Shown in pieces: positions 1-36,113 of a DNA stretch of 64,000 bases; within the stretch, counting starts at the first letter, position 1, and every line of letters starts with the position of its first letter. The DNA is from an uncultured delta proteobacterium (lineage in GTDB: Bacteria; Desulfobacterota; BSN033; UBA1163): the NCBI GenBank assembly GCA_963695895.1, contig CAVOIK010000022.1, positions 70,485-134,484 of the forward strand, written 5' to 3'. Both the position numbers and the translations under genes were made by a program. The notes beneath the pieces are model-generated. The model had not been told where the DNA came from. It was given only the letters and a program-made list of their open reading frames with translations, and ran no database searches.

Positions 1-1
1 G

Positions 2-2758: not shown

Positions 2759-2761
2759 CGC

Positions 2762-3838: not shown

Positions 3839-3845
3839 AACGCCA

Positions 3846-3878
3846 AGCGCTTAGCCTGCCTGCCGCAGGCAGGCGCTT
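3846..3878. repeat. GC-rich palindromic hairpin in the mraY-murD spacer, possibly related to the REP-like family
   Basis: 'agcgc..gcctgcc tgccgca ggcaggc gct'. The inner motif CCTGCC-N-GGCAGG recurs inside the REP-like copies at 40531-40546 and 49997-50010. Confidence 0.5.
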
Positions 3879-3896
3879 TGCGCATAGCGAAAAAGC

Positions 3897-6358: not shown

Positions 6359-6472
6359 ACAAGGATTCATGCAAATAGAAAAATGTAAAATGAGAGGTTT
6401 TGGAAATAAAGCAGAAACGGAGCTGTTAGGAATTTTGAGGCTTCACTTTTGGATTTTGGATTGGGTCATTCC

Positions 6473-7663
6473 ATGCGGTGTGTGATCGCTGGGGGCGGGA
6501 CAGGAGGGCACCTTTTCCCTGGCATCGCCATAGCGGAAGCGTTCATGGATAAGGAGCAAGGGAACGAAGTCCTGTTCATCGGTACAGAGAGAGGGATCGA
6601 GGCCAGGGTGTTACCTGAAGGGAAATTCCCGTTGAAGACCATAGAGGCCAAGCCACTCAAGGGGATGTCTCTGGTGGCGACGATGCGAGGGGTGTGCGCG
6701 ATTCCCAAAGCCATAGGGCAAGCCTTTCGGATCTTGAAAGAATCCAAACCTCAAATGGTCATCGGTGTTGGAGGATACGCCTCGGGCCCCACGGTGGTGG
6801 CTGCGTTTCTGCTCAGAATCAATAGGGCGATCCATGAGCAGAATATGGTGCCTGGCATGACCAACCGATGGTTAAAGTGGATCAGTCAAAGGATCTTTGT
6901 CTCTTTCGAAGAAACCCGGCGTTTCTTTCCAAAGAGAAAGACGTTTGTGACAGGAATGCCCATTCGAAGAAATCTACTGTCCTGTGTGTCTGAGCAGAAG
7001 ACAGACAGGGCGGCTGGCACAGAGGGAGAACGATTCACGGTTCTCATCTTTGGAGGAAGTGCAGGAGCACACCGGATCAACCGGGCCATGATAGAGGCCC
7101 TGGATGCTCTCGCAGGGATAAAGTCTTCCCTCAGGGTGATTCACCAGACCGGAAAGATCGATCTCGATTTCGTCTCTCGAGGGTATCAGGAAAAGGGGTT
7201 CGATGCCTTGGTAAGACCTTTCTTTGAGAATATGGGTTCTTGTTATGCAACCTCGGATGTGGTGATCTGCCGGGCCGGGGCAAGCACGATCGCAGAATTG
7301 GCTGTCTGTGGCAAAGCAGCGATTCTTGTCCCCTATCCCCATGCGGCTCATCAGCACCAACTCCTAAACGCTCAGAAGTTGGTTGCCATGGGGGCGGCAA
7401 GGATGATCCGGGATGAGGAGTTGGGCGGAGCGTCATTGTCTCACGCGATTCTCCAGATGGTCAACCATCCAGAGGAACGCAGGACGATGGAGGACACGAT
7501 CCAGAAGATGGCCCGGCCGAGAGCGGCCCAGGAGATCGTGGACCATTGCTATGCGTTAGCGTGTGGAAAAATGTGGACACGATTTGAGGTTCAGAGAGTT
7601 CTGAGGCAACTGATTCGCCTCCAATCTCACGGACCTTTAGCCTCTCGCGAGATGAGTCTTTAG
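6473..7663 (+). CDS. murG: MurG (lipid I GlcNAc transferase)
   Basis: '[19 protein letters not shown]' lies at the N-terminus. The ORF track begins at TTG 6449, but ATG 6473 ('MRCVIAGGG') fits the family N-terminus better. Confidence 0.85.
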
Positions 7664-7664
7664 G

Positions 7665-9041
7665 TTGAGCATGTATCGTCGAGGGAGAATTCAACATATC
7701 CATTTTGTGGGCATCGGCGGGATTGGCATGAGCGGAATCGCTGAAGTCCTGCTCAATCTGGGCTATCACATCAGTGGCTCTGACGTCAAGGAGACGGAGG
7801 TGACCCGACGACTGGCTTCTCTCGGGTGCGACATCTCTTATGGCCACCGCAAGGAAAATGTGAAGGAAACCGATGTCGTGGTCGTGTCCTCCGCCATTCG
7901 CAAAGGGAACCCGGAAGTGGAGGCCGCTGAGCAAAGACTCATCCCGGTGATCCCAAGAGCTGAAATGCTGGCCGAGTTGATGCGGATGAAGATTGGGATT
8001 GCGGTTGCCGGAACTCATGGAAAGACGACAACGACCTCCCTGATTGCAACAGTCCTTGCCGCCGGAGGACTCGATCCGACGGTCGTGATTGGTGGAAGGC
8101 TGAACAGCCTTGGAAGCAACGCAAGGCTGGGGCAGGGTGAGTTTCTGGTGGCTGAGGCGGATGAGAGTGATGGCTCTTTTCTCAAGCTCATGCCCACCAT
8201 TGCCGTCGTTACGAATATTGATGAAGATCATCTCGATTACTACTCCGGGATCGAAGAGATCAAGGAGGCCTTTCTCAATTTCCTGAACAAGATTCCCTTT
8301 TTCGGCCTGGCCGTGCTCTGCCTGGATCATGCCCAGATTCAGAGCTTGATCCCAAAATTAAAGAAGCGATTTGCCACCTACGGGCTTACGACCCAGGCTG
8401 ACTTTCAGGCCAAAGAAATTGTCTTTGAGGGGCTGACGACCACGTTTGACATTCTCCACCATCGGCAGGAGATCGGCCGGCTGTCCATTCGTATGCCAGG
8501 TCTCCATAATGTTTATAACGCTCTGGCTACGGTGGCTACGGCCTTTGAGCTCGACATTCCCTTCCAGGTGGTACAGGAGGCACTACGGGACTTCGGCGGC
8601 ATCCAGAGGCGGTTTCAGATCAAAAGCGAGAAAAGAGGGATTGCCGTGGTCGATGATTACGGCCACCATCCTACAGAGATCATGGCTACACTGAAGGCTG
8701 CAAGGACAGGTTGGCAGAGGAGGATTGTGGTGGTTTTCCAGCCTCACCGGTACAGCCGAACGAAGGCCCTCTTCAAAGAATTTCTATCCGCTTTTAATGA
8801 CGCGGACGTTCTCATCCTTACCGAGATCTATGCAGCGGGTGAGGATCGGATCGAAGGGGTGGAGACCAGGTCCCTTTACGAGGGGATCCGAGAGCATGGG
8901 CACAAGGATGTCACCTTCTTGGAGAGTAAGAGGACAATTGTGGACCATTTGCTCAAGACGCTTCAACCGGGGGACATGGTCATCACTCTGGGGGCCGGTG
9001 ACATCTGGCAGGTGTCGGATGAGTTGGTAAAGCGGTTATGA
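7665..9041 (+). CDS. murC: MurC (UDP-MurNAc:L-Ala ligase)
   Basis: '[17 protein letters not shown]' and P-loop '[11 protein letters not shown]'. The start could be TTG 7665 or ATG 7671. Confidence 0.9.
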
Positions 9042-9172
9042 AAAACAGGGGTCCAAGGGATCTAGGGTTCAAGGGTCCAAAGGAATAGACAAGATGGAGG
9101 GAAATCGGCACTTTCGTTCTTCACCCGAATCCTTGAACATAGGTCGTGTCATAGAAGCGCCATGTTAGGCCA

Positions 9173-10093
9173 ATGAAATGGGTCAAGGGGATGACCATCG
9201 ATTATCGGGAAGAGATCCGAAGATTAATCAAGGGAAAAGTCCTTTTCAACGCGCCCATGAAGCGATTCACCTCGATGAAGGTAGGAGGACCCGTCGATGC
9301 TCTTCTCTTTCCGAGGAATGTCGGCGAACTGAAGAAGGTGGTCCGTTACGCGAGAAAGAAATCTATCCCCGTCATGATTCTGGGAAAAGGAACAAATGTG
9401 ATCGTTCGGGACAAGGGGATTCGGGGGTGGATGATCAATCTGATGCAGGGATTGAAGAAGATTCGTGTCGAGGGAGAGGTTGTGGAGGCAGAGGCAGGAG
9501 TTCCTCTTCAACGTTTGGTTCAATTCTCCGTTCAGAAAGGGCTGACAGGATTCGAGCCCTTTTACGGAATTCCAGGGACCGTCGGAGGTGGCCTGGCGAT
9601 GAACGCAGGTGCCTGGGGATCCGAATTCAAGGATATTCTCCTCTCCATAACGCTGATGAAAGAGAATGGAGACATCGTCGAAAGGCCCCGCTCGAAACTT
9701 CGGTTCTCTTACCGGGGATTGGTCCTGCCCTCGAAATGGATCATCCTCAAAGGAGAGTTCCAGTTGAAGAAGGGGAAAAAGAAGGAGATGGTCGAACGGA
9801 TAAAATCCTATTCGGAGCAGCGAAGGAAAAAACAACCCTTGGACTATCCGAGTGCGGGCTCCGTTTTCAAAAATCCAGCCGGAGGGCGTGCAGGCCGGTG
9901 GATCGAGGAAGCGGGCTTGAAAGGATATCAGGTTGGCCAGGCGATGGTTTCGGAGCGCCATGCCAATTTCATCATCAACCTTGGAAACGCCACTGCCACG
10001 GATGTCATCCATCTGATGGAATGGGTGGAAAAAAAGGTCTCTGAAGAAAAGGGAGTTTCTCTCGAGAGAGAAGTAAAGGTGGTTGGAGAGTGA
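9173..10093 (+). CDS. murB: MurB (UDP-N-acetylenolpyruvoylglucosamine reductase)
   Basis: 306-aa ORF with an FAD-binding-type N-terminus ('MKVGGPVDALLFP', 'ILGKGTNVIV') and 'SAGSVFKNP'. The overlapping ORFs 9178..10044 and 9224..10012 are shadow frames. Confidence 0.88.
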   Translation: MKWVKGMTIDYREEIRRLIKGKVLFNAPMKRFTSMKVGGPVDALLFPRNVGELKKVVRYARKKSIPVMILGKGTNVIVRDKGIRGWMINLMQGLKKIRVEGEVVEAEAGVPLQRLVQFSVQKGLTGFEPFYGIPGTVGGGLAMNAGAWGSEFKDILLSITLMKENGDIVERPRSKLRFSYRGLVLPSKWIILKGEFQLKKGKKKEMVERIKSYSEQRRKKQPLDYPSAGSVFKNPAGGRAGRWIEEAGLKGYQVGQAMVSERHANFIINLGNATATDVIHLMEWVEKKVSEEKGVSLEREVKVVGE

Positions 10094-11031
10094 AAAATCA
10101 CTCTAAGGAAAAGAGAATCGGCGTGCTGATGGGAGGGATGTCAAAAGAAAGGGACATTTCTCTTAAGACCGGGAAGGCCATCGCTAAAGCACTCACGACC
10201 AAAGGGTATCAAGCCCAACCGATCGATGTCACCCATCGCATTGCCGAAACATTGTCTAAAGAGAAGATCGACTGTGCCTTCTTGGCACTGCACGGGAAAT
10301 TTGGAGAGGACGGAACGATTCAGGGCATGCTTGAACTCATGAGGATTCCGTACACGGGGTCAGGCGTTCTGGCAAGTGCGTTGGCCCTTCATAAGGTGAT
10401 GGCCAAGAGGATATTTCATTACGAGAAGATTCCGACCCCGATGTTTGATGTCTTGCACGTGCAGGAGGTCAAAAAAGGACTTCAGAGAGAGATTTCTCTC
10501 CCCTTACCCGTTGTGGTTAAACCCGCAAGGGAGGGATCAACGATTGGGGTTTCCATTGTCACGAAGGAAAAACAGTTGATCCCGGCCCTGAAGAAAGCGG
10601 GCCAATACGACGAGGAGATCTTGGTGGAGGAATTCATTAAAGGCAGAGAAATTACCGTCGGGATTCTCGAAGGTCTCCCTCTGCCCATCATTGAAATTGC
10701 TCCCAAGAGCGGCTTCTATGATTTCCACTCCAAGTACACCAAGGGGGAAACAGAATACATCATCCCTGCCCGAATCCCAAGAGAGAAATACCTCACCGCT
10801 CAGGATCTGAGCCTGAGGGCTTTTCGAGCGTTGGGGTGCTCTGGTGTTGCCCGAATCGACCTGATGCTCGATGAGAGAGAGAACCCTTTCGTGTTAGAGG
10901 TCAACACCATGCCGGGAATGACGGAGACCAGTCTTCTGCCGAAAGCAGCGAATTATGCGGGGATTGCCTTTGAAGAGCTGGCGGAACGGATCCTGTTGGG
11001 GGCTTCTTTGAAGATGGAGAGTGCGACGTAG
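10090..11031 (+). CDS. ddl: D-alanine--D-alanine ligase
   Basis: 313-aa ATP-grasp ORF with 'GVLMGGMSKERDISLKTG', 'HGKFGEDGTIQG' and 'EVNTMPGMTETS'. Its GTG start overlaps the murB stop. Confidence 0.9.
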   Translation: MKNHSKEKRIGVLMGGMSKERDISLKTGKAIAKALTTKGYQAQPIDVTHRIAETLSKEKIDCAFLALHGKFGEDGTIQGMLELMRIPYTGSGVLASALALHKVMAKRIFHYEKIPTPMFDVLHVQEVKKGLQREISLPLPVVVKPAREGSTIGVSIVTKEKQLIPALKKAGQYDEEILVEEFIKGREITVGILEGLPLPIIEIAPKSGFYDFHSKYTKGETEYIIPARIPREKYLTAQDLSLRAFRALGCSGVARIDLMLDERENPFVLEVNTMPGMTETSLLPKAANYAGIAFEELAERILLGASLKMESAT

Positions 11032-11040
11032 AGGAACAGG

Positions 11041-11889
11041 ATGGACGAGTCAGAGACCATCGAACGAGAAAGGTTCTTTCGACCCGAAAGGAAGACCGAG
11101 GGTCAGGGCGGAGAAAAATTCCGAAAGGTGTTGAAAAAGGCCATCCAGGTCTCTTCCGCTCTCTTGATTCTTTCTTTTCTCGTCTTCTTCGGTCATCAAG
11201 CGTATACCCAACTACTCGCAAACCCCTCGTTTCGAGTCAGGGATATACAAGTTCAGGGATGTGGCAAGATTACGAAGGAAAGCCTTCTCTCGTTGGCTTC
11301 GATCGAGGGGATGCCCAATCTGTTCACCGTGCGAGTGAAGGACATTGGCAAACGGTTAGAGTCTCATCCCTGGATTGAAGCCGTGGGTGTCAGAAAAGTT
11401 TTTCCCAACCGAATCATGATCGAAGTTCAGGAACGAAAGCCGATCGCCATCATCCAACTGGAGGATCTCTACTACATTGACGCCAAAGGCGTGATTTTTG
11501 CCCGGGTTGGAGATCGAGATCGATACAACTATCCTATCGTGACGGGGCTGAATCGGGAAGCGTTGGACCGCGAGCCTGAGGAGACGAAGCAGTCCATCAC
11601 GAAGGCGATGGAGCTGTTATGGATGGCAGAGAAGGAGAGGGTCGATCCTTTAGAAGACATTTCAGAGATCCATCTCGAAAAGATCTTCGGCATTCAATGT
11701 TTCACCAAGGCAGGGGGAGTGAGAGTCGACATGGGATGGGACGATTTTGGAGAGAAGCTGAAGCGTGTGTCCATGGTGTGGGCCGATCTTCAGAAGAGAA
11801 AGATCTCTGCGGTCTCCATCGATTGCAGTGATCCCAACCGGGTCGTCGTTAAAAAGGCCCCGGACAAAAACGGGTCCAAAAGGAGGTGA
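11041..11889 (+). CDS. ftsQ: FtsQ (POTRA-domain division protein)
   Basis: 282-aa ORF with one N-terminal TM ('SSALLILSFLVFFG') followed by a POTRA-like segment ('FRVRDIQVQG...'). It lies between ddl and ftsA. Confidence 0.8.
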   Translation: MDESETIERERFFRPERKTEGQGGEKFRKVLKKAIQVSSALLILSFLVFFGHQAYTQLLANPSFRVRDIQVQGCGKITKESLLSLASIEGMPNLFTVRVKDIGKRLESHPWIEAVGVRKVFPNRIMIEVQERKPIAIIQLEDLYYIDAKGVIFARVGDRDRYNYPIVTGLNREALDREPEETKQSITKAMELLWMAEKERVDPLEDISEIHLEKIFGIQCFTKAGGVRVDMGWDDFGEKLKRVSMVWADLQKRKISAVSIDCSDPNRVVVKKAPDKNGSKRR

Positions 11890-11896
11890 GGCCGAA

Positions 11897-13123
11897 GTGG
11901 GTAAGAAAGAAGCGGTGGTGGTGGGGCTCGATATTGGAACCACAAAGATCTGTGCGGTGGTTGGGCAGATCAACGAGGGTCAGGTGGACATCATTGGACT
12001 TGGGACCTACCCATCGAAAGGCCTGAGAAAAGGGGTCGTGGTCAATATCGACAGCACGGTTCAGTCGATCAAGAAGGCCATCGAAGAAGCCGAGCTCATG
12101 GCTGGGTGTCAGATTACCTCGGTCTATGCGGGCATCGCAGGGGGACACATCAAGGGGATCAACAGCCACGGAGTGATTGCGGTTAAGAATCGAGAGATTA
12201 CCTCGAACGATGTGAAGCGTGTGATCGATGCTGCGAGTGCCGTGGCCATTCCCATGGACCGGGAAGTGATTCACATCATTCCCCAGGAGTTCATTGTGGA
12301 CGAGCAGGATGGCATTCGGGATCCGGTCGGGATCACAGGGATCCGACTCGAAGGAAGGGTTCATATCGTTACGGGAGCTATCACCTCTGCCCAGAACATC
12401 ATCAAATGCGCCAATCGGGCGGGGCTGGACGTCAATGACATCGTCCTAGAGCAACTGGGGTCCAGTGAAGCGGTGCTCATGCCTGAGGAGAAGGAATTGG
12501 GCGTTGCCATCATCGACCTGGGTGGAGGAACGACCGATCTCGTGATCTTTTCCAATGGCGCCATTAAGCATACGGCAGTCGTCGCGCTGGCGGGAAATCA
12601 CATCACCAATGACATTTCCATGGGGCTTCGGACGCCGCTGGAAGAGGCGGAGAAGATCAAGAAGCGTTACGGATGCGCCCTGGCGAGCATGGTCCAAAAG
12701 GATGAGACGATCGAAGTTCCGAGCGTAGGGGGTCGAAACCCTCGAGTCCTGTCCAGACAGACTCTCGCAGAGATCGTTGAACCGCGAGTTGAAGAGATTC
12801 TTACTTTGGTCCACCACGAAGTGATGAAGACAGGATATGCAAACCTCATCGCTTCAGGCATCATCCTTACGGGTGGCACCGCTGTGCTGGAAGGACTGCC
12901 CGAGCTCGCCGAGCAGATTTTCAACCTACCCGTTCGGCGCGGATTACCGATCGGCATCGGCGGATTGGTGGACCTGGTGCATAGCCCGATGTATGCGACG
13001 GGAGTGGGTCTTGTCCTCTACGGGAGCAAGCACGAGACCCAAAGCAGGTTCAAGATCGGGGAAGCGAATATTTTCAGTAAGGTGACCCATCGCATGAAGG
13101 AGTGGATTGGTGAGTTCTTTTGA
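11897..13123 (+). CDS. ftsA: FtsA (actin-like division protein)
   Basis: 'VVGLDIGTTKICAVVG' and 'IIDLGGGTTDL'. GTG 11897 is preceded by RBS aggagg (11881-11886). The ORF-track start at 11765 would overlap ftsQ by 125 nt. Confidence 0.9.
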   Translation: MGKKEAVVVGLDIGTTKICAVVGQINEGQVDIIGLGTYPSKGLRKGVVVNIDSTVQSIKKAIEEAELMAGCQITSVYAGIAGGHIKGINSHGVIAVKNREITSNDVKRVIDAASAVAIPMDREVIHIIPQEFIVDEQDGIRDPVGITGIRLEGRVHIVTGAITSAQNIIKCANRAGLDVNDIVLEQLGSSEAVLMPEEKELGVAIIDLGGGTTDLVIFSNGAIKHTAVVALAGNHITNDISMGLRTPLEEAEKIKKRYGCALASMVQKDETIEVPSVGGRNPRVLSRQTLAEIVEPRVEEILTLVHHEVMKTGYANLIASGIILTGGTAVLEGLPELAEQIFNLPVRRGLPIGIGGLVDLVHSPMYATGVGLVLYGSKHETQSRFKIGEANIFSKVTHRMKEWIGEFF

Positions 13124-13237
13124 GAGAATGATGGGGGATTGGAATATGGGAAGTCTGGGAGAAATCAAGAAATCTTTGAGACCCAACATTCCATTATTCC
13201 ATCGCTCCAGTATTCCATCTCCACAGAGGAGGGAGAA

Positions 13238-14446
13238 ATGATCGAATTCGACGAGAACAAGAGTTTAGCCGCCAAGGTCAGAATCGTCGGTATTGGGGGA
13301 GGTGGCAACAATGCCATCAATACGATGATTTCATATCAACTCTCCGGTGTCGATTTTGTTGCAGCCAACACCGATGCTCAAGCCCTTGCTGCAAGCAAAG
13401 CCCCCTTCAAACTCCAATTGGGAACAACCCTCACAAAGGGTCTTGGGGCCGGAGCGAATCCGGAGATCGGGAGAAAGGCTGCTTTGGAAGACATCGAGAT
13501 GATTCGAGAGGCCCTCAAGGGTTCGGACATGGTCTTCATTACAGCCGGGCTGGGCGGGGGTACAGGCACAGGAGGCGCCCCGGTGATCGCGGAGGTCGCT
13601 CGGGAGTTGGGAGCCCTGACCGTGGCCGTCGTCACGAAGCCTTTCCATTTTGAAGGAAAGAAAAGGATGAGACAGGCTGAAGAGGGACTCGCCAACCTTC
13701 GGATGAGCGCCGATGCCTTGATTACGATTCCAAATCAGCGGCTCCTGAGCATCAGCGGGAAAAGTATGACCCTCCTGGAGGCCTTCAAGAAGGCGGACGA
13801 AATACTCTACCATGCGGCCAAGGGGATTTCTGACATTATCGTGGGTCACGGAATTATCAACGTAGACTTTGCGGATGTCCGGACCATCATGTTGGAGACC
13901 GGAGTGGCCCTCATGGGGACAGGAATGGCCACAGGTGAGAGTCGAGCTGTAGAAGCGGCACAGAAGGCGATCTCGAGTCCTCTTTTAGAGGATGTTTCTA
14001 TCGAAGGAGCCCGAGGCCTCCTCATTAACATTACGGGAGGACCCAACATGACCCTCAACGAGATCAACGAGGCCACCACGCTGATTCACAAAGAGGCTCA
14101 CGAAGATGCGAACATCATCTGGGGTATGGTGATTGACTCCACCATGCAGGACGAACTACGGGTCACGGTGATTGCGACCGGCTTTGGGAAGGCGGAGGAG
14201 AAAGCAGTCCCAGCGACCTCGGCTGCAACCACCACAGCGACCACTGCCGCGACCATCGCCCGATTGAAGAAGATTGCCCCTGTGTCTCTCAACACAAAAG
14301 AGAACAGAGACATCCCGGCCTTCCTCCGACGGGTGAAGACGAATGAGCGATACGATGAGGTGAAACTCGATGAATCGACCGAAGTCTCCGTAGAGGACGA
14401 AGATCGGTTTGACATCCCGACGTTTTTGAGAAAACAGGCCGATTAG
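13238..14446 (+). CDS. ftsZ: FtsZ (tubulin-like division GTPase)
   Basis: '[12 protein letters not shown]', tubulin signature '[13 protein letters not shown]', and C-terminal peptide '[11 protein letters not shown]'. ATG 13238 follows 'gaggagggagaa'. Confidence 0.95.
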
Positions 14447-14567: not shown

Positions 14568-16283
14568 ATGATTTCCTGGAAGCTCGTTCAAAGAGCAAAA
14601 CAGATTCTTGAGAACGAAAGGGGAACGGTTCACAAGCCATGGGGTGGAAGAATTGCGATCTGTCTCATCTATCCCAACCACTATGCGGTGGGCATGTCCA
14701 GCCTGGGGTTTCAGACCGTTTACCGATGTCTGAACGCCGAAGACGATGTCGTCTGCGAAAGGGCCTTCCTTCCTGACCCGGACGACCTCCGGGAGTACCG
14801 CGAAACTCAGACTCCTCTTCTCTCCCTCGAATCTCAGAAACCGCTCTCTGATTTCGATATCCTGGCCTTCTCACTCTCTTTTGAGAACGATTTCATCAAT
14901 ATCCTGACGCTCCTGGACCTTGCGCGCATTCCCAAAGAGAGACAGTTGCGCGGCAAAGGTTCCCCATTGGTCACGGGGGGAGGTGTCGCCGTTTTTTTAA
15001 ACCCGGAGCCTCTCAGTGATTTCTTCGACTTCTTCGTACTCGGTGAGGCAGAGGAGGTCATTAAGGAATTTCTCCAGGTGATTCGAGCGGCTCTCTCGGC
15101 AAGGGGCGAGACGAGCAGAGAGACCCTCTTAAGACGACTCGGAGCCGTTGAAGGAATTTATGTTCCTGCCTTCTATCATGTGACTTACGGGGCGGATGGA
15201 AAGATAGAGGCCATGGTTCCGGAGGCAGGATTCCCGCGGCAGATCAAGAGGCGATGGGTAAAAGATCTTGACCCCATTCCTGCTCAATCGGTTCTCTTCA
15301 CGGCGGATACTGAATTTAAAGATATGGCGTTGGTGGAGGTGAATCGTGGTTGTCCCCGCGGTTGCCGTTTCTGTGGCGCCTGTTTTGTCTATCATCCTTT
15401 TCGGAATCGAAGCCTCCCAGTCCTCGAATCCCTTTCGGTAGAAGCTCTAACCAAGGAGCCACGGATCGGCCTCGCAGGCACGGCAGTCTCTGATTACGGA
15501 CAACTTCTTCCATTGTGTCAGGCGATCCTGACCCAGCGAGGAAGATTTTCGTTGAGTTCCTTGCGGGTGGATGCGATCACTCCTTCCCTTGCTCAGTGTC
15601 TGAATCAGAGCGATGTCCATACGGTGGCGATTGCACCCGAGGCTGGATCCGAGAGGCTTCGAAGGGTGTTGAAGAAAGGCTACAAGGAAGAGGAAATCTT
15701 GGAGGCCGTGAACACATTGGTCGAGAACGGCCTTTTTCAAATCAAGAGCTATTTCATGATCGGCCTTCCCTCAGAGACGGATGAAGACGTGAGAGCCATT
15801 GTGCACCTGGCCAAGCGGATTCGCCATCAGGTGGTTTCGAACCCCAAAACGCAAAAACGCAAATGGAAGTTGGTTCTGAGTGTCAATCCTTTTATCCCAA
15901 AGCCCGCCACACCCTTTCAGTGGACCGCCTTGGATAGCGTAGAGGAGCTCAAGAGAAAACTGAGGACGATCCAAAGAGAACTCAAGGGAGAAAAACAGAT
16001 CAATATGATCCACGACCTTCCGAAGTGGGCCTATGTCCAAGCACTGCTCTCAAGGGGAGATCGGAGAGTGGGGAAGATGTTGCTGGAAGCTCATCGGTGG
16101 CAGGGAAATTGGCCGCGGGCCTTTCGGGAATCGAGCCTCAACCCAGACTTCTTCGTCCATCGGACGAGAGATCTGGATGAGGTCTTCCCGTGGGACTTCA
16201 TTGACCACGGCATCCCAAAGGAGAAGCTAAAAGAAGAGTATCTCAAGGCGATGAAAGAAGCAGATATAAAGATCACAAGTTGA
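14568..16283 (+). CDS. radical SAM protein with an N-terminal B12-binding-like domain (resembles the uncharacterised TIGR03960-type family, from memory)
   Basis: 571-aa ORF with the CxxxCxxC cluster 'CPRGCRFCGAC' and N-terminus 'IYPNHYAVGMSSLGFQ'. Confidence 0.75.
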   Translation: MISWKLVQRAKQILENERGTVHKPWGGRIAICLIYPNHYAVGMSSLGFQTVYRCLNAEDDVVCERAFLPDPDDLREYRETQTPLLSLESQKPLSDFDILAFSLSFENDFINILTLLDLARIPKERQLRGKGSPLVTGGGVAVFLNPEPLSDFFDFFVLGEAEEVIKEFLQVIRAALSARGETSRETLLRRLGAVEGIYVPAFYHVTYGADGKIEAMVPEAGFPRQIKRRWVKDLDPIPAQSVLFTADTEFKDMALVEVNRGCPRGCRFCGACFVYHPFRNRSLPVLESLSVEALTKEPRIGLAGTAVSDYGQLLPLCQAILTQRGRFSLSSLRVDAITPSLAQCLNQSDVHTVAIAPEAGSERLRRVLKKGYKEEEILEAVNTLVENGLFQIKSYFMIGLPSETDEDVRAIVHLAKRIRHQVVSNPKTQKRKWKLVLSVNPFIPKPATPFQWTALDSVEELKRKLRTIQRELKGEKQINMIHDLPKWAYVQALLSRGDRRVGKMLLEAHRWQGNWPRAFRESSLNPDFFVHRTRDLDEVFPWDFIDHGIPKEKLKEEYLKAMKEADIKITS

Positions 16284-17502: not shown

Positions 17503-17518
17503 TGGCACAATACTTGCT
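17503..17518 (+). promoter_or_regulatory. sigma-54 (RpoN) -24/-12 promoter
   Basis: 'TGGCACaatacTTGCT' matches TGGCAC-N5-TTGCW exactly, with the canonical GG-to-GC spacing. It lies in a 590-nt ORF-free AT-rich spacer, 224 nt upstream of ATG 17742. Confidence 0.6.
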
Positions 17519-17741
17519 ATATAGCAGACTGTAATCATTAAGCAATAACCAGAAAGGGGGGGCCATGAGGCTTTGAAGGAGCGCACTATGGATTTGCGCG
17601 TGTAGGACAGTTAATTTGTCAGAGTTAGTCTATCAGGCTGAATGTCGGGGAAAGAGTGAAAAAATGAATGTGAGTATGAGTAAAACTGAGATAAAGAAAA
17701 GACCTATTAGAGGAGGGTCTAGCGTGAAAGGAGGGTTTGAA

Positions 17742-19782
17742 ATGAAGAAGAATTACTTGGCATTGGTGATGGGGTTATTCCTGCTGTCAGTAGGAGTGTC
17801 GGCATGGGGTGCTGATGTGACGCAGGAGCTGTATTTCACAAAGAAGACAACTCTTACGGCTGGCGCAACCTATACTTTTAGGTTCAGTCTATGGGATGCC
17901 GAGACAGGGGGGAACTGAGGTATGGTCTGAAGAGAAACAGGTCACATTGATCAGGAACGACCATAAAGACTTATCTTGGAGACTCGGAATTGACACCATT
18001 CGTTGGAGTTGATTTTTCCCAGCAGTATGTGGGTTCAGGTGGAACGAGTAGAAAAAAAATGACGACCTTGTCGTGATAGGAAACAAGAGGAGCAAGCTTG
18101 GAGTCGTTCCTTACGCCATGTGGGCGGTAGTATCTGCAGAATGGTCCTGTAGGAGCGACTGGACCGACAGGACCCACGGGTGACACAGGGCCGACTGGAC
18201 CTACGGGGCCTACAGGAGCGACTGGAGCCGATGGGTCCGATTGGAGCTACAGGGTCCTACGGGAGCGACAGGAGCCGACTGGAGCCAGGTCCGACTGGAG
18301 CTTACAGGTCCTACGGGAGCCAGGTCCACGGGAGCACAGGGCCGACTGGAGCCACAGGGAGCCACGGGTGTCGGCAACTTTCGCGGTGCGTGGGATGATT
18401 GCAACACCGTATGCTACTCGATGACATTGTAACGGACCTGGGTCAGACCTGGCTGGCACTCAGCCCGACTACAGGCGTCCAGCCCGTCGAGGGCGCCGAT
18501 TGGACGCTCATGGCTGCAAAGGGCGACACGGGAGCGACAGGGGCGACAGGAGCCGATGGATCGATTGGACCTACAGGGCCTACGGGGCGACTGGGCCAGG
18601 GAACTGGAGCGACTGGGCCACAGGATCCACAGGAAATACGGGAGCGCCGGGTGCTACAGGAGCCACGGGAGCCACAGGAGATCCGGACTGCGGGCCACAG
18701 GGCTCGACTGGAACAGGTATAACAGTGTCGCCCGGGAGACACTAGATAATACTGGGACGACCACTTCGACCAGGTCTATACGGGTACTCTTAGCGGCACC
18801 GACCGGCACCAGGACCCATCGGGTGACGGTTACTGACCGGATCCAGTGTTATGTGATCCTCACGAGCTCTGTTCTCGCTGCAGGTAGCCAGACTGCGTAC
18901 GTGAGCTTCGCTGTTTAGGCAACGACAATGACCTACTGCTGACAGTACGACCCTTGTGCGTCAACATGGGACTAGCAGTGGCACCGGTCTGATCCAGGCC
19001 AGCGCAGTTAGGGTGTCACCGGACTCACCGCCGGGTCAACTGGACCCACAGGGCCGACTGGAGCCACAGGTGCTACGGGAGCCACAGGGGCAACCGGAAC
19101 CACGGGTTAACTGGAGCCACAGGTCCGACTGGAGCCGCACGGGTGATCAGGGTATTCAGGGTGTAGCAGGTCCGATTGGGCCGCAAGGGCCGATTGGGCC
19201 GACTAGGACCACAGGAGTCCAATAGGTCTTACGGGAGCCACAGGGGCTACGGGAGCCACAGGGCCGACGGGAGCCACAGGTGCGACGGAGCCAGGTCGCT
19301 ACGGGAGACACAGGGGCAACCGGAGCCACAGGTCCTACGGGAGACACAGGTCCGACTGGAGCCACAGGGCTTTCAGGAATCGCTGCCCAGGCTTTTTCAG
19401 CTGAGTCGGTGCTGCTAGTATCCCGACTAGCTCGGAATTTCTCGCACCGCCGGCGAGTGTGACCATTTCTGCTTCAGGGCAGAAAATTTATGTCAATTCG
19501 GTCAAGGGCTCTTGGCAGTTCGGCAGCGGGTGGAGCGAGCAATCTCGTTCTCGATATATGCTATAAAGAGTCAGCTGGTTCGATCACAGCCGTGGGACAC
19601 TCCTGAGTATGCAGGTCCCGCAGAATACCAAGGTGCCTATGGGCTTGAATGCGATCATTAGCGGCCTTGCCACAGGAACCTACGACGTGGGGCTATGCGG
19701 GTACGCTTCGGACTGCTGATCATCAGACTGGGATTTAATCGATTATGGATACACCTCTGCTTTCGTGTTTGTCACTCCATAA
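17742..19782 (+). pseudogene. collagen-like (Gly-X-Thr triplet repeat) secreted protein locus, heavily frame-disrupted; possibly two tandem genes
   Basis: RBS aaaggaggg precedes ATG 17742, followed by signal peptide 'MKKNYLALVMGLFLLSVGVSAWG'. The N-terminal domain ('TYTFRFSLWDAETGG'...'VVPYAMWA') can be read only by hopping frames. GXY tracts appear in all three + frames: '[22 protein letters not shown]' (ORF 18399), '[19 protein letters not shown]' (ORF 18500), 'GDQGIQGVAGPIGPQGPIGPT' (ORF 18956) and '[26 protein letters not shown]' (ORF 19280). The last stop is TAA 19780-19782. Confidence 0.7.
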
Positions 19783-19840
19783 TCGCAGGGGAGGGCGGGG
19801 CATGATCCCGCCCTTTACGATCCCACTGTAATTGTCAGAC

Positions 19841-19880
19841 GAACAAGAGCAGGGCCGATTCGGCTCTGCTCTTGTTCTTT
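19841..19880 (+). terminator. rho-independent terminator after the collagen-like locus
   Basis: 17-bp stem 'gaacaagagcagggccg / cggctctgctcttgttc' with one mismatch, followed by 'ttt'. A smaller GGGCGGGG/CCCGCCC hairpin precedes it at 19793-19813. Confidence 0.7.
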
Positions 19881-19887
19881 CCAGTGC

Positions 19888-19917
19888 TTGACAAACATCT
19901 TGATATCATGCAATAAA
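19888..19917 (+). promoter_or_regulatory. candidate sigma-70 promoter for the GT-C/TPR gene
   Basis: A perfect -35 TTGACA (19888-19893) is followed 17-18 nt later by a weak -10 ('caataaa'), about 95 nt upstream of ATG 20012. Confidence 0.3.
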
Positions 19918-20011
19918 CCGACTAAGATTCGTACGCTTCGTCACTCAAAGATTATTTTACAAATGACTCTTCGATATATTTATCTCGGACCCTCAGTGGC
20001 GAGGCTCGGTA

Positions 20012-22153
20012 ATGCGCACTCTTATCCAACATAAAAAAAGTCCCGGAGGCGTGCATCGAGGGACAAGATACTTCATCTAAGACAAGCCAACCGAGTTTTC
20101 CTCATTCTTGCCTTCGTTCTGTTGATTGGGACCCTCATTACCTATTCCAATCATTTCAGGAACGGCTTCCATTTTGACGATTCCCATGTCATCGTCGAAA
20201 ACGTCCACATTCGAAATGTCCGCAATATTCCCCTTTTTTTTAAAGATGGCACGACGTTCAGCTCCCTGCCGAGCAACCAGTCCTATCGGCCCGTCGTGTC
20301 GGCAACCCTTGCCATCGATTACTGGCTGGGCAAAAGCCTTAATCCTTTCTATTTTCATCTCACCACATTCATCCTCTTCCTGTTTCAGGGGGTGCTCATA
20401 TTTCTTCTCTATTTCAAGATAGTAAATCTATCGTTGGAACATCCCTGGAATAAGTTTTTGGCGCTCTTTGCAACCGCCTGGTACATGCTTCACCCTGCCA
20501 ACGCAGAGACGATCAACTACGTCTCTGCCCGCTCGGATACCCTCTCGACCCAGTTTCTTCTCTTTGCCCTCGTGCTCTTCATCTATTCGTCACGGTGCAG
20601 GAAATGGCACCTCTATCTGATCCCCGCGGGAATCGGCATCCTCGCCAAACCGATTGGCAGGAGTCTTTCCCATATTGCTATTGGCCTATGTCATCCTTTT
20701 TGAGAAGAGAATATCCCTGGCAGAGATCTTCCACAGAAAAAACTTTCCGGCCCTCGCTTCCTCCTTCAAGAAGGTTCTGCCTTCGCTTCTCTTCTGCGGG
20801 ATCCTGGTGGTCTTTATGGGAAGGATGGGGCCAGCCACATGGGTTGCGGGCGGATCGTCTTTCTATCACTATGTCATCACACAACCTTTTGTCATTCTCC
20901 GTTACTTCACGACCTTCTTCTTGCCCATCGATCTGAGCGCAGACACAGACTGGACACCATTCAAGACCCTTCTGGATGGGCGGTTTTTCATCGGAATATT
21001 GTTTCTGCTGGGACTGTTGTGGGCGGCTGTGGCTTCATCAAGAAAAGAGAGAGGACGACCAATTTCCTTTGGTATCCTTTGGTTTCTCATTGCGCTGCTC
21101 CCAACCAGCCTCACCCCGCTTGCCGAGGTCATGAACGACCACCGGATCTTTTTCCCCTACGTGGGCCTGACGATGAGTGTCTCCTGGGCCATTGCACTGG
21201 GGCTATCTCATCTGAAAAAGTCGGTGCAGCCGGCGCAGACATTTAACCGTGCACTGGTCGTGGCAATATTGATCGTCCTCGCGGCTTATGCATACGGAAC
21301 GTATCAGAGGAACAAGGTATGGCTCACGGATGAGACGCTCTGGCGTGACGTCACGGAAAAAAGTCCAAACAACGGCAGGGGACTTATGAATTACGGCTTG
21401 GCCCTGATGGCAAAGGCCGATTACGCGGGGGCGGAGCGGTATTTCAACAAAGCCCTTGCCTTGACGCCCAACTATTCCTTTCTTCTCGTCAACCTGGGAA
21501 TACTGAAGGAGGCCACCGGCCACCCGGTCGAGGCGGAGTCTTTCTTTAGAAGGTCCGTCGTCTCCAACACCGGATACCCCGGATCCTATTTCTATTACGG
21601 GCGCTTCCTAAAAAGGCAGGGACGGATCGATGAGGCGATCCAGAACCTGAACAAGACGCTTGCTTTGGTCCCTGCGCATCTGGATGCAAGACATCTCTTA
21701 ATGGATATCTATTTCGAGCGCAGGGAATTCACTGAACTGGCAACCCTGGCTCAGAGCACACTTGATCTTGCACCTGAGGACGAGAAGGCGACGGCTTACC
21801 TTCGTGCGACCCAAAAAGGGAACCCTCTGCTTCAGGTCGCCTTGGAAAGGGTGAAGACTCATCGAACTCCTGAGAACCTTCTTGAATTGAGTTTCAGGTA
21901 TTATGAGGCAGGCCAATTCACAAAGTGCATTGATGCGGCCGAAGAGGCGCTGAAATTGAAGTCTGACTATGGTCCGGCTTACATTAATATCTGTGCCGCC
22001 TACAATGCGCTGAAGCAATGGGACAGGGCGATCGAGGCAGGGGAGAAGGCCGTCCGACTCAACCCGAATAATCCACTGGCAAAGAATAACCTGGCCTGGG
22101 CAAAAAGGGAAAAGATGAAATCAGAAAAGGTCAAAGCTCCGACCGCGGAGTAA
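20012..22153 (+). pseudogene. GT-C-fold, TMTC/PMT-like membrane glycosyltransferase with a C-terminal TPR domain; two apparent frameshifts (may be sequencing errors)
   Basis: ATG 20012 ('MRTLIQHKK') joins the ORF 20122 frame if the A7 run at 20033-20039 is A8. ORFs 20122..20703 and 20654..22153 join at about 20653-20656 ('AKP|MAGVFPILL'). The first loop carries 'HFDDSHVIVEN', and 'HPANAETINYVSARSD' resembles DUF1736/TMTC. There are about 10 TM segments and then at least 6 TPR-like repeats ('YAGAERYFNKALALTPN', 'WDRAIEAGEKAVRLNPNN'). Confidence 0.7.
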
Positions 22154-22182
22154 GCTCTTGCAGGAGGTGTCAACGATCGGCC

Positions 22183-23253
22183 ATGGAACTCACCGCAATC
22201 ATCCCGGCGTATAATCCCCCTCAGGAATTGGTCGGATTTGTCCGTCAGTTGGCTGCTTCCGAGTTTGCCAAAATCATTGTCGTGAACGACGGCAGTACCC
22301 GGCAATGTGACTCGGTATTTCAAGCGATTGAAGGGATTCAAAAGGTTACACTTCTCAGGCACGCAATCAACCTTGGAAAGGGCGCTGCCCTGAAGACAGC
22401 GTTTAATCACGCCTGTTGTTATTTTGGCGATCACATCGGGGTCGTGACGATCGATGCGGACGGCCAGCACCTGCTCGAGGATGCCCTCAAGGTGGCTGAG
22501 GTTTTGAAAAACCATCCGGAAAACTTCGTGATGGGCGTAAGGACATTCGGTAAAAATGTTCCCTTGCGAAGCAAGATCGGAAATATTTTGACGAGCTTCC
22601 TATTCCGGCTGTTGGTAGGCCAAAAGCTGACCGACACACAATCCGGACTTCGGGGCATCCCCAAATCGTTTCTTCCGGGGCTGTTGAAAATCGGTTCGAA
22701 CGGGTTCGAATTTGACCTTGATACGCTTCTCACATGGAAGTACACCAGGCGCCAGATCATTGAGCAGCCGATTCAAACCGTTTACATCAAAGGGAATGAG
22801 TCATCGCACTTTAACCCCATTATGGACTCCATGAGGATATATTTTGTCCTCTTTCGCTTTACCCTTGCATCCTTGTCTTCCGCTCTCATTGATTATGCGG
22901 TATTTATACTGATTTACGGCCTCACCTCAAACCTTCTCGCGGGGCAGGCCTGCGCTCGCCTGGTATCGATGCTCTATAACTATTCCGTAGTGAAAAAAAT
23001 GGTATTTTTTTCCGGGGAACAGGTTACCAGAACCTTTCCCAAATATCTCGCTCTCGTCATTTGTTCCGGCTCAATTTCGTATTTCCTGATCAAAGTCCTG
23101 ACTCAGTTCTCCCTATTGCCCGTGATCGCTGCCAAAGCCGTTGTGGAGTCTCTGGTCTTTCTTGCCAATTTTGCTATCCAGCGCGATTTTATTTTTGTTA
23201 AGAATACCGATCTCAAAACGCAAGCGCCCAACTTGAAACAAAGGGTTAAATGA
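22183..23253 (+). CDS. GT2 polyprenyl-phosphate sugar synthase (GtrB/DPM1-like) fused to a GtrA-like 4-TM domain
   Basis: 356-aa ORF with 'IIPAYNPP', 'VVNDGS', 'TIDADGQH' (DxD) and 'TDTQSGLRG'. The C-terminal ~130 aa forms four hydrophobic helices ending 'ANFAIQRDFIF', which is GtrA-like. Confidence 0.75.
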   Translation: MELTAIIPAYNPPQELVGFVRQLAASEFAKIIVVNDGSTRQCDSVFQAIEGIQKVTLLRHAINLGKGAALKTAFNHACCYFGDHIGVVTIDADGQHLLEDALKVAEVLKNHPENFVMGVRTFGKNVPLRSKIGNILTSFLFRLLVGQKLTDTQSGLRGIPKSFLPGLLKIGSNGFEFDLDTLLTWKYTRRQIIEQPIQTVYIKGNESSHFNPIMDSMRIYFVLFRFTLASLSSALIDYAVFILIYGLTSNLLAGQACARLVSMLYNYSVVKKMVFFSGEQVTRTFPKYLALVICSGSISYFLIKVLTQFSLLPVIAAKAVVESLVFLANFAIQRDFIFVKNTDLKTQAPNLKQRVK

Positions 23254-30022: not shown

Positions 30023-31064
30023 TCAGGGCCTTTCCTTTTGCTGAAATTCGAGGCGGACGTAGGGGGAGGCCATGAGACGCATGAGCGAGTAGTAACCGAG
30101 CTGAAAGGCAAGGGTGTCGCCGACACGCGGTTTTGGGTCCATGTTCGTCACATCGACAAGGGTGTGATCACTTGAGGCCCGAACAATTGTGACCCCAGGG
30201 GATACAGGAAAGAGGAACTCCTGAGCCGTATCAAGCTGACCGAGGGAGAGCATGCCGAGCAGCCTGTCCCGCTTCTTAAGCTCGATCAGCTCAGCCTTAA
30301 GAACGAACGTGTCGTGGTGGAATCCTTGGATACGGCGCGGTCCGATCGATGAGGAAATACCCAGAAGAATCGCCGTGCCGATTCTAAGCTGATTCACACC
30401 TTGAATAGACTTATTTTCAAGGGTGAAATTACCAAAGACGTTGGTGGATCCTCCGGAAATGACCGGAAGGCGAAGGCCACATTCTTCCTCTATTTTTTTG
30501 ACCAAAGCGACAAGGCGTTGGAGAGATGTGAGCCTGAAATTCTCTTTCGCTATTGTACGCGAAATACGCACCGAGCCCCTGTAACGTCAACTCCTTCATT
30601 CCTGAAACTTCGCGGCACACCCCTGGCACATCCTCCGGTTGGAACCCTTCGCGCCCCGTATCGAGATCGACCATCAGGATGACAGAATGATGTTTGCGGG
30701 TCCTCGAGGCTTCGGTTGACAGAGCCCGAAGAACATCGAGATCTACATTCAAGCTCGTGTCTGCTCGGGCAATACACTCGCCCACTTCACTTAAGGCAGG
30801 CGACCGAAGAAGGACCATAGGCACTTCAATGCCTGCCTTCTGCATTCGGGCAATGTTCTCGAGCCTGGAGTCCCCAAGCATCTTGATACCCCCTGCGATC
30901 ATCGCCCGTGCCACTTCTGGTGTACCGCACACCCCCTTGGTCACACCGACAACCTCGATACCCAGGGGACGGCAGACGGAAAGAGTCCTACGGGCATTGT
31001 CTGTAATCTTCGCAAGGTCTATGGTGAGGTGGAGTGTGGCCATAAGAGATATTCCTCGCTTCAA
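30023..31064 (-). CDS. alanine-racemase-fold PLP enzyme (ornithine/amino-acid racemase-like, YhfX-type); one frameshift
   Basis: ORFs 30429..31064 and 30023..30571 are parts of one gene. 'GIEVVGVTKGVCG' carries the candidate PLP lysine, and 'ISGGSTN' is also present. The frame changes within about 30545-30570. Confidence 0.6.
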
Positions 31065-35961: not shown

Positions 35962-35990
35962 GGGGTGCTCCTTTTCTTTATCTCCTGGCC

Positions 35991-36113
35991 GGCAAGTGCC
36001 CCGAAAGATCCACCCTTTAGGGTGGGGTTGAGGGGCACAATATAACACAATATAAAAGATAAAAGGAAATTACCTTCCCGGGAAGCGCCGCCCTTCAGGG
36101 CGGGGAGCTTTAC
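35991..36113 (+). repeat. composite REP/MITE-like element (~120 nt, two hairpins)
   Basis: 'ggcaAGTGCCCCgaaagatCCACCCtttaGGGTGGggttgaGGGGCAC..AT-rich..accttCCCGGGAAGCgccGCCCttcaGGGCGGGGAGCTTTAC'. It lies upstream of the NHL gene start. Confidence 0.8.

Follow-up and report, generated by a model that had tools for sequence, protein, structure and literature searches.

Locus organisation

Here, we describe three neighbouring genes of a 64-kb stretch of DNA from an uncultured delta proteobacterium (this whole stretch is called the window throughout) and consider them as a candidate system for protein glycosylation on the outer side of the cytoplasmic membrane. The genes encode a collagen-like protein (CLP), a membrane-bound glycosyltransferase of GT-C type with tetratricopeptide repeats (TPR), and a family 2 glycosyltransferase (GT2) fused to a GtrA-like domain. 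An initial annotation, made from the sequence, had listed them as three consecutive same-strand units; all of them indeed lie on the + strand, close to where they had been placed.

17742-19782, + strand: CLP gene; signal peptide and GXT collagen blocks, readable solely via approximately 20-26 frame switches
20012-22153, + strand: GT-C+TPR gene; three one-base insertions, repaired protein of approximately 712 amino acids (aa)
22183-23253, + strand: GT2-GtrA fusion gene; intact, with Glycos_transf_2 and GtrA_DPMS_TM domains

A TMTC-like membrane enzyme with a TPR array

The second gene encodes a protein of two parts.

20012-21330, + strand: GT-C (TMTC-like) membrane domain; approximately 430 residues with about 11 hydrophobic segments in the hydropathy plot
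21331-22153, + strand: C-terminal TPR array of approximately eight repeats; Pfam TPR_2 (E = 2.6e-23) and other TPR families

Once the insertions are repaired, the product has the features ascribed to it at first, namely a length of about 710 aa, the acidic motif HFDDSHVI and the C-terminal TPR array. The membrane domain carries the motifs FHFDDSH (first loop, EL1), NQSYRP, NPFYFH, HPANAETINY..ARSD, LAKP, DTDW and NDHR. FHFDDSH directly follows the first transmembrane (TM) segment, and both of its Asp residues are invariant in alignments of 10, 20, 54 and 58 sequences; across 20-58 homologues, the key residues of FHFDDSH and of HPANAETINY..ARSD are invariant.

Pfam and NCBIfam scans of the protein report TPR families only and leave the membrane domain undetected. 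TMTC_DUF1736 (PF08409) gives no match for the window protein at E <= 0.1, the Pfam models PMT and PMT_2 do not match even at E <= 10, and a profile of the membrane domain retrieves nothing from the PDB sequences at E <= 10. Out of the profiles that the initial annotation had named, TPR, Glycos_transf_2 and GtrA are thus found in the cluster, while PMT_2 and DUF1736 miss the protein.

Structural comparison was more informative. As the Foldseek search with a full-length model was swamped by TPR proteins (consensus TPR proteins and the TPR domain of OGT), it was rerun with a naturally truncated homologue, P0054, which consists of the N-terminal domain. The AlphaFold model of this domain has a pLDDT of 90.8 and a pTM of 0.91, and its top eight matches in the PDB are all GT-C enzymes, including ArnT, yeast and human STT3, AglB and PglB (probability 1.0, E = 9e-4 to 1.4e-2, TM-score (query) 0.38-0.53). 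The highest-ranking of them is ArnT (5ezm, E = 9e-4). The predicted fold, together with the acidic motif in the first loop, places the membrane domain in the GT-C superfamily. In the model of the orthologue P0004, 16 helices, i.e., about eight pairs, follow residue 424. From the odd number of TM segments (approximately 11) and from the situation in TMTC and TfpW enzymes (see below), we infer that this TPR array faces the periplasm.

Within the superfamily, the domain was compared by hhalign, with the bacterial profile A2 as query and the seven TMTC sequences of supplementary file 2 of PMC7801869 as reference. The alignment with TMTC1-4 reaches a probability of 99.1% (E = 1.2e-18) over 385 columns and thus nearly the whole domain. 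Against single human TMTC1-4 sequences the probability is 94-97%, whereas the fragments of ArnT (5EZM) and Pmt1 (6P25) from the same alignment, which served as controls, yield 0.2%. The paired motifs are DD/DD, NQSYRP/SHKSYRP, NPFYFH, HPANAETINY..ARSD/HPIHTEAV..GRAD, LAKP/LVKE, DTDW/(C)YDW and DHR/AER, with the Asp pair of FHFDDSH aligned to the DD motif of the TMTCs. The conserved TMTC motifs M1-M7 have been described as DD, SHKSYRP, RxD, KE(T/Q)xxT, DW, PxxP and ERxxY (PMC7801869). Of these, M1 (DD), M2 (NQSYRP), M3 (RSD), M5 (DW) and the Arg of M7 (DHR) are aligned and kept, only the Lys of M4 is retained (LAKP), and M6 is not clearly kept (LLPTS). A DUF1736-like motif that had been noted in the sequence is indeed present and TMTC-like (HPANAETINY..ARSD), but it aligns with motif M3 in the TM3/EL2 region of the TMTCs (HPIHTEAV..GRAD) and not with DUF1736; according to the alignment with the TMTCs (PMC7801869), the segment equivalent to DUF1736 is the stretch ITQP...LSADTDW. 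Because of the profile probabilities of 99.1% and 0.2%, we class the membrane enzyme on its sequence as specifically TMTC-like and as neither ArnT-like nor PMT-like. This upholds the initial assignment to the TMTC type; as judged by ArnT, a grouping with lipid- or LPS-modifying enzymes did not occur.

The bacterial family is large: a search with the N-terminal domain retrieves 1,222 clusters (50% identity) at E <= 1e-30 and 19,933 at E <= 1e-10, and members from Nitrospirota, Desulfobacterota and Bacteroidota are 50-60% identical to each other. The nearest named relatives stem from metagenome-assembled genomes (MAGs) of Nitrospirota, Thermodesulfovibrionales and Desulfobacterota (approximately 57-61% identity). 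In the search output, family members are mostly labelled "tetratricopeptide repeat protein" or are nameless; the JGI label "protein O-mannosyl-transferase" is an automatic annotation only.

A predicted donor synthase of the polyprenyl-phosphate type

The third gene is read as one intact protein, and the fusion of a GT2 enzyme with a GtrA-like 4-TM domain, recognised at first from short motifs, is borne out by the Pfam matches.

22183-22830, + strand: GT2 catalytic domain with VVNDGS and DADGQH; Glycos_transf_2, E = 3.9e-16
22855-23253, + strand: GtrA/DPMS-type 4-TM domain and short C-terminal tail; GtrA_DPMS_TM, E = 5e-11, residues 225-338

The best NCBIfam match is PpgS, which stays under its cutoff, and an exact look-up of the fusion protein found no record with the identical sequence. 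Since a phmmer search of the PDB with the single protein gave zero matches, a profile (A5) was built from 10 GT2 sequences. It finds the dolichyl-phosphate mannose (DPM) synthase of P. furiosus (5mlz, E = 4e-12), followed by ArnC and GtrB (5ekp). DPM synthase, ArnC and GtrB all load a monosaccharide onto polyprenyl phosphate, and on sequence grounds the GT2 domain is of the polyprenyl-phosphate sugar synthase type. With such an enzyme as its most conserved neighbour, the GT-C is predicted to use a sugar donor linked to a lipid phosphate.

The cluster had been proposed to contain a donor synthase/flippase, and here the two halves of the claim have to be separated. The synthase type is well matched. 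A catalytic domain joined to a 4-TM GtrA/DPMS domain is, however, the ordinary build of DPM-synthase-type enzymes, so that the GtrA-like part need not be a flippase; as judged from the sequence, the fusion supports a role as donor synthase but proves no flippase function. The fusion is kept in the related loci L001, L011, L014, L034, L046, L085, L089, L092, L094, L097 and L100. In three of them (L011:4241-5908, L097:2946-4718 and L100:4167-5939), the protein is extended by a C-terminal domain of approximately 200 aa, in which a motif resembling SAM-dependent methyltransferases was seen by eye, a hint at possible methylation of the transferred sugar.

The collagen-like protein

The CLP gene starts with the ATG at 17742, preceded by a ribosome binding site (RBS; GGAGGG, 17730-35), and ends with a TAA stop codon at 19780-82. 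It comprises the following parts.

17742-17810, + strand: Sec-type signal peptide, MKKNYLALVMGLFLLSVGVSAWG followed by AD (three-frame translation)
to approximately 18140, + strand: N-terminal globular domain (tblastn with the domains of the intact orthologue L001)
18143-18370, 18522-18700 and 19033-19384, + strand: GXT collagen blocks (frame-path reconstruction and GXY scan)
approximately 18375-18520, + strand: CBM5/12-like module (compare the sub-threshold CBM_5_12 match on L001)
18724-19038, + strand: internal segment resembling the C-terminal domain of another allele (tblastn with the CLP of L104)
approximately 19385-19779, + strand: C-terminal globular domain (tblastn with the C-domain of L001)

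In a GXY scan of the whole window, runs of at least seven triplets are confined to 18143-19384, where seven runs of 7-11 triplets are spread over three frames. The orthologue of L001 (L001:7185-9758, 857 aa) is intact. Pfam Collagen (PF01391) matches it in eight stretches (E = 1e-63), and CBM_5_12 is sub-threshold with 25.9 bits at a cutoff of 26.2. Between them, the L001 orthologue and the window copy show the features that define a bacterial CLP, namely GXY repeats, flanking non-collagen domains and an export signal, although the window copy is not readable as a single ORF. Thr had been said to occupy nearly every third position of the repeats. It does take the Y position in most readable triplets of the window CLP (64-71%), which is not nearly every one, and in 43% of the triplets of the L001 protein.

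The segment at 18724-19038 is 37% identical over 107 aa to the C-terminal globular domain of the L104 CLP. It stops at "...TGLTAGS" and is followed by further collagen repeats and a second C-domain, which is of the L001 type. This layout suggests a mosaic, two fused tandem CLP cassettes or a misassembly.

Gene neighbourhood in related loci

The comparison covered 80 loci from species-representative genomes, 22 metagenome loci retrieved with P0004 as query, most of them short, and several contigs obtained via exact protein look-up. Open reading frames (ORFs) with at least eight GXY triplets, mostly GXT, were counted as CLP neighbours, and 10 kb on each side were inspected.

GT2 is the commonest neighbour of the GT-C gene and lies within 6 kb of it in 61 of the 101 de-duplicated loci. 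Nearly all relatives outside the Bacteroidota have it fused to GtrA; in the Bacteroidota, it is a separate protein of approximately 240 aa beside a DUF2304-like membrane protein of approximately 121 aa. Being so often retained, the pair of GT-C and donor synthase is therefore the conserved core of the system.

The complete trio of CLP, GT-C and GT2-GtrA recurs in L001-L004, L087 and L092, and the arrangement is thus not due to chance. L001, a short-read contig, has only the block 17725-23225 in common with the window, which is exactly the three genes, and its flanks are unrelated; the trio thus relocates as a unit. Over GT-C and GT2, the DNA of both is 87% identical. Across the block and its surroundings, DNA identity is highest in the syntenic flanks (90-96%), lower in the GT-C and GT2 genes (87-89%) and lowest in the CLP gene (approximately 68-80%), and the length of the CLP ranges from 857 aa in L001 to approximately 1,800 aa in L087, if read through. 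This variation in length and identity is the behaviour of a diversifying surface protein.

In a wider circle of relatives, a CLP gene is found at most 5 kb from the GT-C gene in the window, L001, L087, L092, L104, L088, L010, L034 and L038, as well as in L046, L047, L060, L082, L096, L100, L103 and L108, and at a distance of 5-10 kb in L016, L073, L080 and L083. Among the fetched loci that are CLP-positive, 16 of 20 have the CLP within 5 kb. These proteins are of at least four architectures (CBM5/12-bearing, CBM96-headed, the L100/L108 type and the Pedobacter type), and their orientation and the gene order vary between loci. Loci with a CLP do not form one group in a neighbour-joining tree built from the GT-C domain but fall into approximately nine lineages; they account for 15 of the 32 loci outside the Bacteroidota crown and for 3 of the 68 inside. 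The excess corresponds to a Poisson P of approximately 1e-13 counted by loci and of 8e-7 counted by nine lineages, with the crown rate as an internal background, which is not the genome-wide frequency of CLPs. The adjacency that the initial annotation wanted to see conserved is therefore kept in close relatives and recurs in distant ones, but most family members have no CLP neighbour.

Proposed function

We read the region as a three-component periplasmic glycosylation module with a TMTC-like transferase, whose likely acceptor is the CLP encoded alongside, and we give this reading an even chance of being right. In the proposed mechanism, the GT2 domain would use a nucleotide sugar to load undecaprenyl phosphate with one sugar residue on the cytoplasmic face of the membrane. 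The fused 4-TM GtrA/DPMS domain is predicted to anchor the enzyme and may assist in the handover or flipping of the lipid-linked sugar, which would then arrive at the periplasmic leaflet. There, the TMTC-like GT-C could bind the flipped polyprenyl-phosphate sugar via the motifs that it has in common with the TMTCs (the acidic DD loop, SYRP, RxD, K, DW and R) and pass it to Ser/Thr hydroxyls of an exported protein, a chemistry suggested by fold and homology, while the periplasmic TPR superhelix would hold the acceptor chain. Here, the acceptor would be the Sec-exported CLP encoded immediately upstream, whose GXT repeats supply dozens of Thr residues. Sugars added before the chains trimerise, or while they do so, would stabilise or decorate the triple helix, and they would make a surface fibre that is already hypervariable more diverse.

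That the CLP serves as acceptor in this lineage is plausible from the gene neighbourhood, though the evidence leaves it evenly balanced. As a whole, the proposal is partly supported: the predictions put to computation came out in favour, and its central claim, the glycosylation of the CLP, is what we still infer. A further-reaching idea, that true orthologues of the TMTCs exist in bacteria and that collagen-like GXT repeats are among their natural acceptors, with a periplasmic GT-C+TPR enzyme, supplied by the polyprenyl-phosphate sugar synthase of its operon, O-glycosylating Y-position Thr after export, is tentative and seems to us slightly more likely to fail than to hold.

Several observations weigh against the proposal. 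At 65 of the 68 Bacteroidota-crown loci, no CLP lies within 10 kb, and L085, L089, L014 and L094 have no CLP neighbour despite long flanks. A reverse search with the N-terminal domain of the CLP yielded four matches, one of them on a contig that ends inside the CLP; L114, where the domain occurs in a mobile-element context, has no GT-C within approximately 4.5 kb, although with only two contigs this is a weak test. The TMTC_DUF1736 model matched just one out of ten family members (E = 0.016). Both the CLP and the GT-C gene are frame-broken as read in the window. Known TMTC acceptors are folded cadherin domains and not collagen. Moreover, a Y-position Thr is a general trait of bacterial CLPs, with 31.6% overall (PMC8968730).

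Alternative explanations

As most members of the GT-C family, including nearly all of the Bacteroidota crown, are found without a CLP neighbour, the family is not dedicated to CLPs. The best-placed alternative is a general periplasmic system in which GT-C+TPR and GT2 act on other or many exported proteins, comparable to GtrB/PgtC2 of streptococci, and the CLP would be adjacent only because genes for variable surface proteins often settle in envelope or glycan loci and would be a minor acceptor at most. The sheer size and conservation of the family across phyla are in its favour, as are the housekeeping-like cluster of the Bacteroidota (SDR, DUF2304-like protein, GT2, TPR protein, RecQ, KpsF and TatC), which contains no CLP, and the long-flank loci without a CLP mentioned above. 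Against it speak the recurrence of CLP adjacency in about nine separate lineages of the GT-C, where the CLPs are of unrelated architecture and the genes differ in their order, the close spacing within the 10 kb inspected on each side, and the relocation of the trio as one block. We hold a general system to be unlikely, but deserving serious attention.

A second alternative concerns the frame breaks, which the initial annotation had reported for the substrate and the GT-C gene. Both genes are broken, but the extent was understated: approximately 20-26 switches are estimated from the frame path of the CLP gene, and the GT-C gene, set against intact homologues and the DNA of L001 and L087, shows three insertions (A7 at 20033-39, T4 at 20096-99 and an extra base at 20656-58). 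Such breaks could be real, with the CLP and GT-C genes being decaying pseudogenes or phase-variable by homopolymer slippage and the module switched off as sequenced. Their density is in fact uneven, from some 20-26 in the 2-kb CLP gene to three in the 2.1-kb GT-C gene and none in the 14-kb dcw cluster or in GT2-GtrA, and several of them lie in homopolymers near the 5' ends of surface-related genes, the classical setting of phase variation, with G6 (17907-12), A8 (18052-59) and A7 (20033-39) as candidate slippage tracts.

On the other hand, intact orthologues of all three genes exist on the short-read JGI metagenome contigs L001-L004, whose GT-C is 88% identical to the N-domain of the window protein, and in L092. 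L087, which is syntenic with the window from FtsZ to past the phospholipase gene (86-96% DNA identity in the flanks), is fragmented at other sites: its GT-C is split into 410+306 aa, its GT2 and GtrA parts are separated, and its CLP is as fragmented as that of the window. Conversely, the phospholipase gene pldA (352 aa) and an alanine-racemase-like gene (336 aa) are whole in L087 and broken in the window. Here, pldA is cut into two ORFs near 25493, and the alanine-racemase-like gene (Ala_racemase_N, 30023-31064, - strand) consists of two overlapping ORFs with the break near 30429-30571. The same holds for an NHL-repeat/fn3 gene (34065-36048, - strand) with a break near 34654-34928, and both of these genes add to the signs that indel errors occur throughout the window.

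Seven out of seven indels resolved by hand are +1 insertions, which looks technical rather than mutational. Four of them extend runs of at least three identical bases (the three tracts named above and T4 at 20096-99), and the other three are single bases outside such runs (near 17953, near 18030 and at 20656-58). In a delta-proteobacterial MAG (L046:1615-7062), a collagen-like region of approximately 5.5 kb located 5' of the GT-C gene is likewise shattered into at least 15 short ORFs in the three + frames, the same picture as in the window and L087. With intact short-read orthologues, different break sites in L087, other broken genes in the window and insertions of one kind, the breaks are probably consensus errors of long-read assembly, worst in the repetitive, strain-variable CLP gene, and we consider it distinctly improbable that they are real. 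The module is thus probably functional in the living organism.

Finally, that the GT-C modifies a lipid or polysaccharide (lipid A, the core of lipopolysaccharide, O-antigen or exopolysaccharide) in the manner of ArnT or GtrV, with the TPR array for protein-protein docking only, is very improbable. In its favour, O-antigen is the classical target of three-component GtrA/GtrB/GT-C systems, the GT2 has ArnC as one of its nearest relatives of solved structure, and ArnT is the best Foldseek match. This match does not discriminate, however, since ArnT is also the best template for the TMTCs (PMC7801869) and TfpW (10.1101/2020.04.19.049825), the profile probability against ArnT is minute next to that against the TMTCs, and the characterised C-terminal TPR arrays on GT-C enzymes (TMTC, TfpW) go with protein acceptors.

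Neighbouring features

Further features of the window flank the trio or lie between its genes.

19793-19813, + strand: GC-rich hairpin, GGGCGGG/CCCGCCC, 3' of the CLP stop codon
19842-19876, + strand: GC-rich hairpin with a 15-bp stem, 3' of the CLP stop codon
24735-25801, + strand: pldA, outer-membrane phospholipase A1 (PF02253)

From their sequence, both hairpins are possible transcription terminators between the CLP gene and the GT-C/GT2 pair. A simple terminator scan did not list those at 19793-19876 because of the short T-run, and the counts of the promoter and terminator scan were no higher than in shuffled sequence. The presence of pldA marks the organism as diderm. Positions 1-14446 hold a complete and unbroken dcw cluster ending with ftsQ, ftsA and ftsZ, and the shattered CLP gene lies 3 kb downstream. 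In the window (14568-16283) and in L087, ftsZ is followed by a radical SAM gene of the Radical_SAM_N2 type, and a Thermodesulfovibrionales MAG has a homologue (L085:12775-14397) at a distance of two genes from its GT2/GT-C pair, which probably reflects synteny only. L085 also has a TPR-CHAT protein upstream and no CLP.

The cluster in the Bacteroidota contains a divergent TPR protein of approximately 265 aa (28 loci), a short-chain dehydrogenase/reductase (SDR; 25 loci), the DUF2304-like protein (34 loci) and the separate GT2. Genes for RecQ, KpsF-like and TatC proteins are often located nearby, e.g., in L090:7408-14651 and L047:9896-13385, and L090 has a second GT-C of the PMT_2 type at a distance of 6 kb. 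The general O-oligosaccharyltransferase of the Bacteroidota was unknown as of PMC8729774; the idea that the TMTC-like members are this missing enzyme was set aside, as the predicted donor from the partner GT2 is a monophosphate-linked monosaccharide and not a diphosphate-linked glycan. In a Nitrospiraceae MAG (L034:6338-9815), four extra genes, one with a HAD-like DxDGT motif, stand between GT2-GtrA and GT-C, and a divergent CLP of 885 aa is encoded on the other side. This cluster may build a larger glycan.

Significance

TMTCs are disease-linked human O-mannosyltransferases. How they work and select substrates is known largely from models and not from measurements (PMC7801869). A bacterial homologue that is widespread, shares an operon with its donor synthase and has a repetitive candidate acceptor next to it would ease biochemical and structural work and, if the proposal is true, serve as a genetically simple model, its substrate being repetitive and defined, of how TMTC TPR domains choose their targets. 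It would likewise constitute a bacterial, post-export counterpart of collagen modification. Reviews call the modification of collagen regions rare and name BclA-type proteins as known exceptions (PMC8968730). If a dedicated route for glycosylating Thr after export existed, it would change the view of triple-helix stability in collagens without hydroxyproline and could be used for making glycosylated recombinant collagens. There is also an annotation gap to be closed, as Pfam misses the catalytic domain of this TMTC-like bacterial family in the members tested.

Comparison with known systems

Within the literature covered, searches retrieved no characterised bacterial TMTC-like enzyme and no described pairing of a GT-C with a collagen-like protein. 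This agrees with the initial annotation, which knew of no bacterial TMTC-like/collagen pairing, but bacterial precedents for parts of the system exist, with TfpW and the streptococcal systems described below as its nearest functional analogues. TfpW of P. aeruginosa, a GT-C arabinosyltransferase/O-oligosaccharyltransferase for group IV pilin, resembles the window protein by description only: it is predicted to span the membrane 11 times, its first periplasmic loop carries a DD-type motif, its C-terminal TPR domain is periplasmic, its gene directly adjoins the substrate gene pilA, and both a polyprenyl-phosphate sugar and a GtrA-like component are required for its action (10.1101/2020.04.19.049825). 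It differs in its acceptor, a pilin, in its sugar, D-arabinofuranose, which is polymerised, and in the lack of a collagen-like partner; no pilin gene is adjacent to the trio in the window.

In the streptococcal Pgf and GtrB/PgtC2 systems, a GT-A/GT2 enzyme links a sugar to undecaprenyl phosphate, and on the outer side of the membrane a GT-C hands this sugar on to exported proteins at Ser/Thr-rich stretches; the Pgf cluster of S. mutans encodes GT-A, GT-Cs and substrate adhesins together (PMC12041528). Unlike the window protein, these GT-Cs belong to the YfhO family and have no TPR, their hosts are monoderm, and their acceptors are disordered Ser/Thr tracts and not collagen. Systems of the GtrA/GtrB/GtrV type (phage O-antigen glucosylation, teichoic acid glycosylation) share the GtrB-like GT2, the GtrA-like domain and the GT-C, and these three components are encoded together in the window, too, as a conserved pairing. 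Their acceptor is a polysaccharide, however, GtrA is a separate protein and the GT-C carries no TPR.

Regarding the acceptor, the nearest parallel is given by the BclA exosporium proteins of Bacillus and C. difficile, in which collagen-like GXT repeats are O-glycosylated on Thr (PMC8968730). The route differs from the one proposed here, which involves a membrane GT-C acting after export. BclA glycosylation is attributed to soluble, nucleotide-sugar-dependent transferases inside the mother cell.

The closest relationship of the enzyme itself is that to metazoan TMTC1-4 (CAZy GT105), the O-mannosyltransferases of the endoplasmic reticulum for cadherins. Both combine a GT-C of approximately 11 TM segments with a lumenal or periplasmic TPR array, both membrane domains are homologous over their full length, and the motifs DD, (S)YRP, NPFYFH, HPxxxE...(G/A)R(A/S)D, K, DW, (E/H)R and RN are collinear. 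A polyprenyl-type phosphate monosaccharide from a DPM-synthase-like GT2 is the donor of the TMTCs and, as predicted from the sequence, that of the window system. Identity is just about 20%, with the TMTC_DUF1736 model below threshold, and the bacterial M4 reads KP instead of KE. In the bacterium, undecaprenyl phosphate presumably serves as carrier, a collagen-like GXT repeat takes the place of the cadherin domain as candidate acceptor, and the enzyme is encoded in an operon with its donor synthase.

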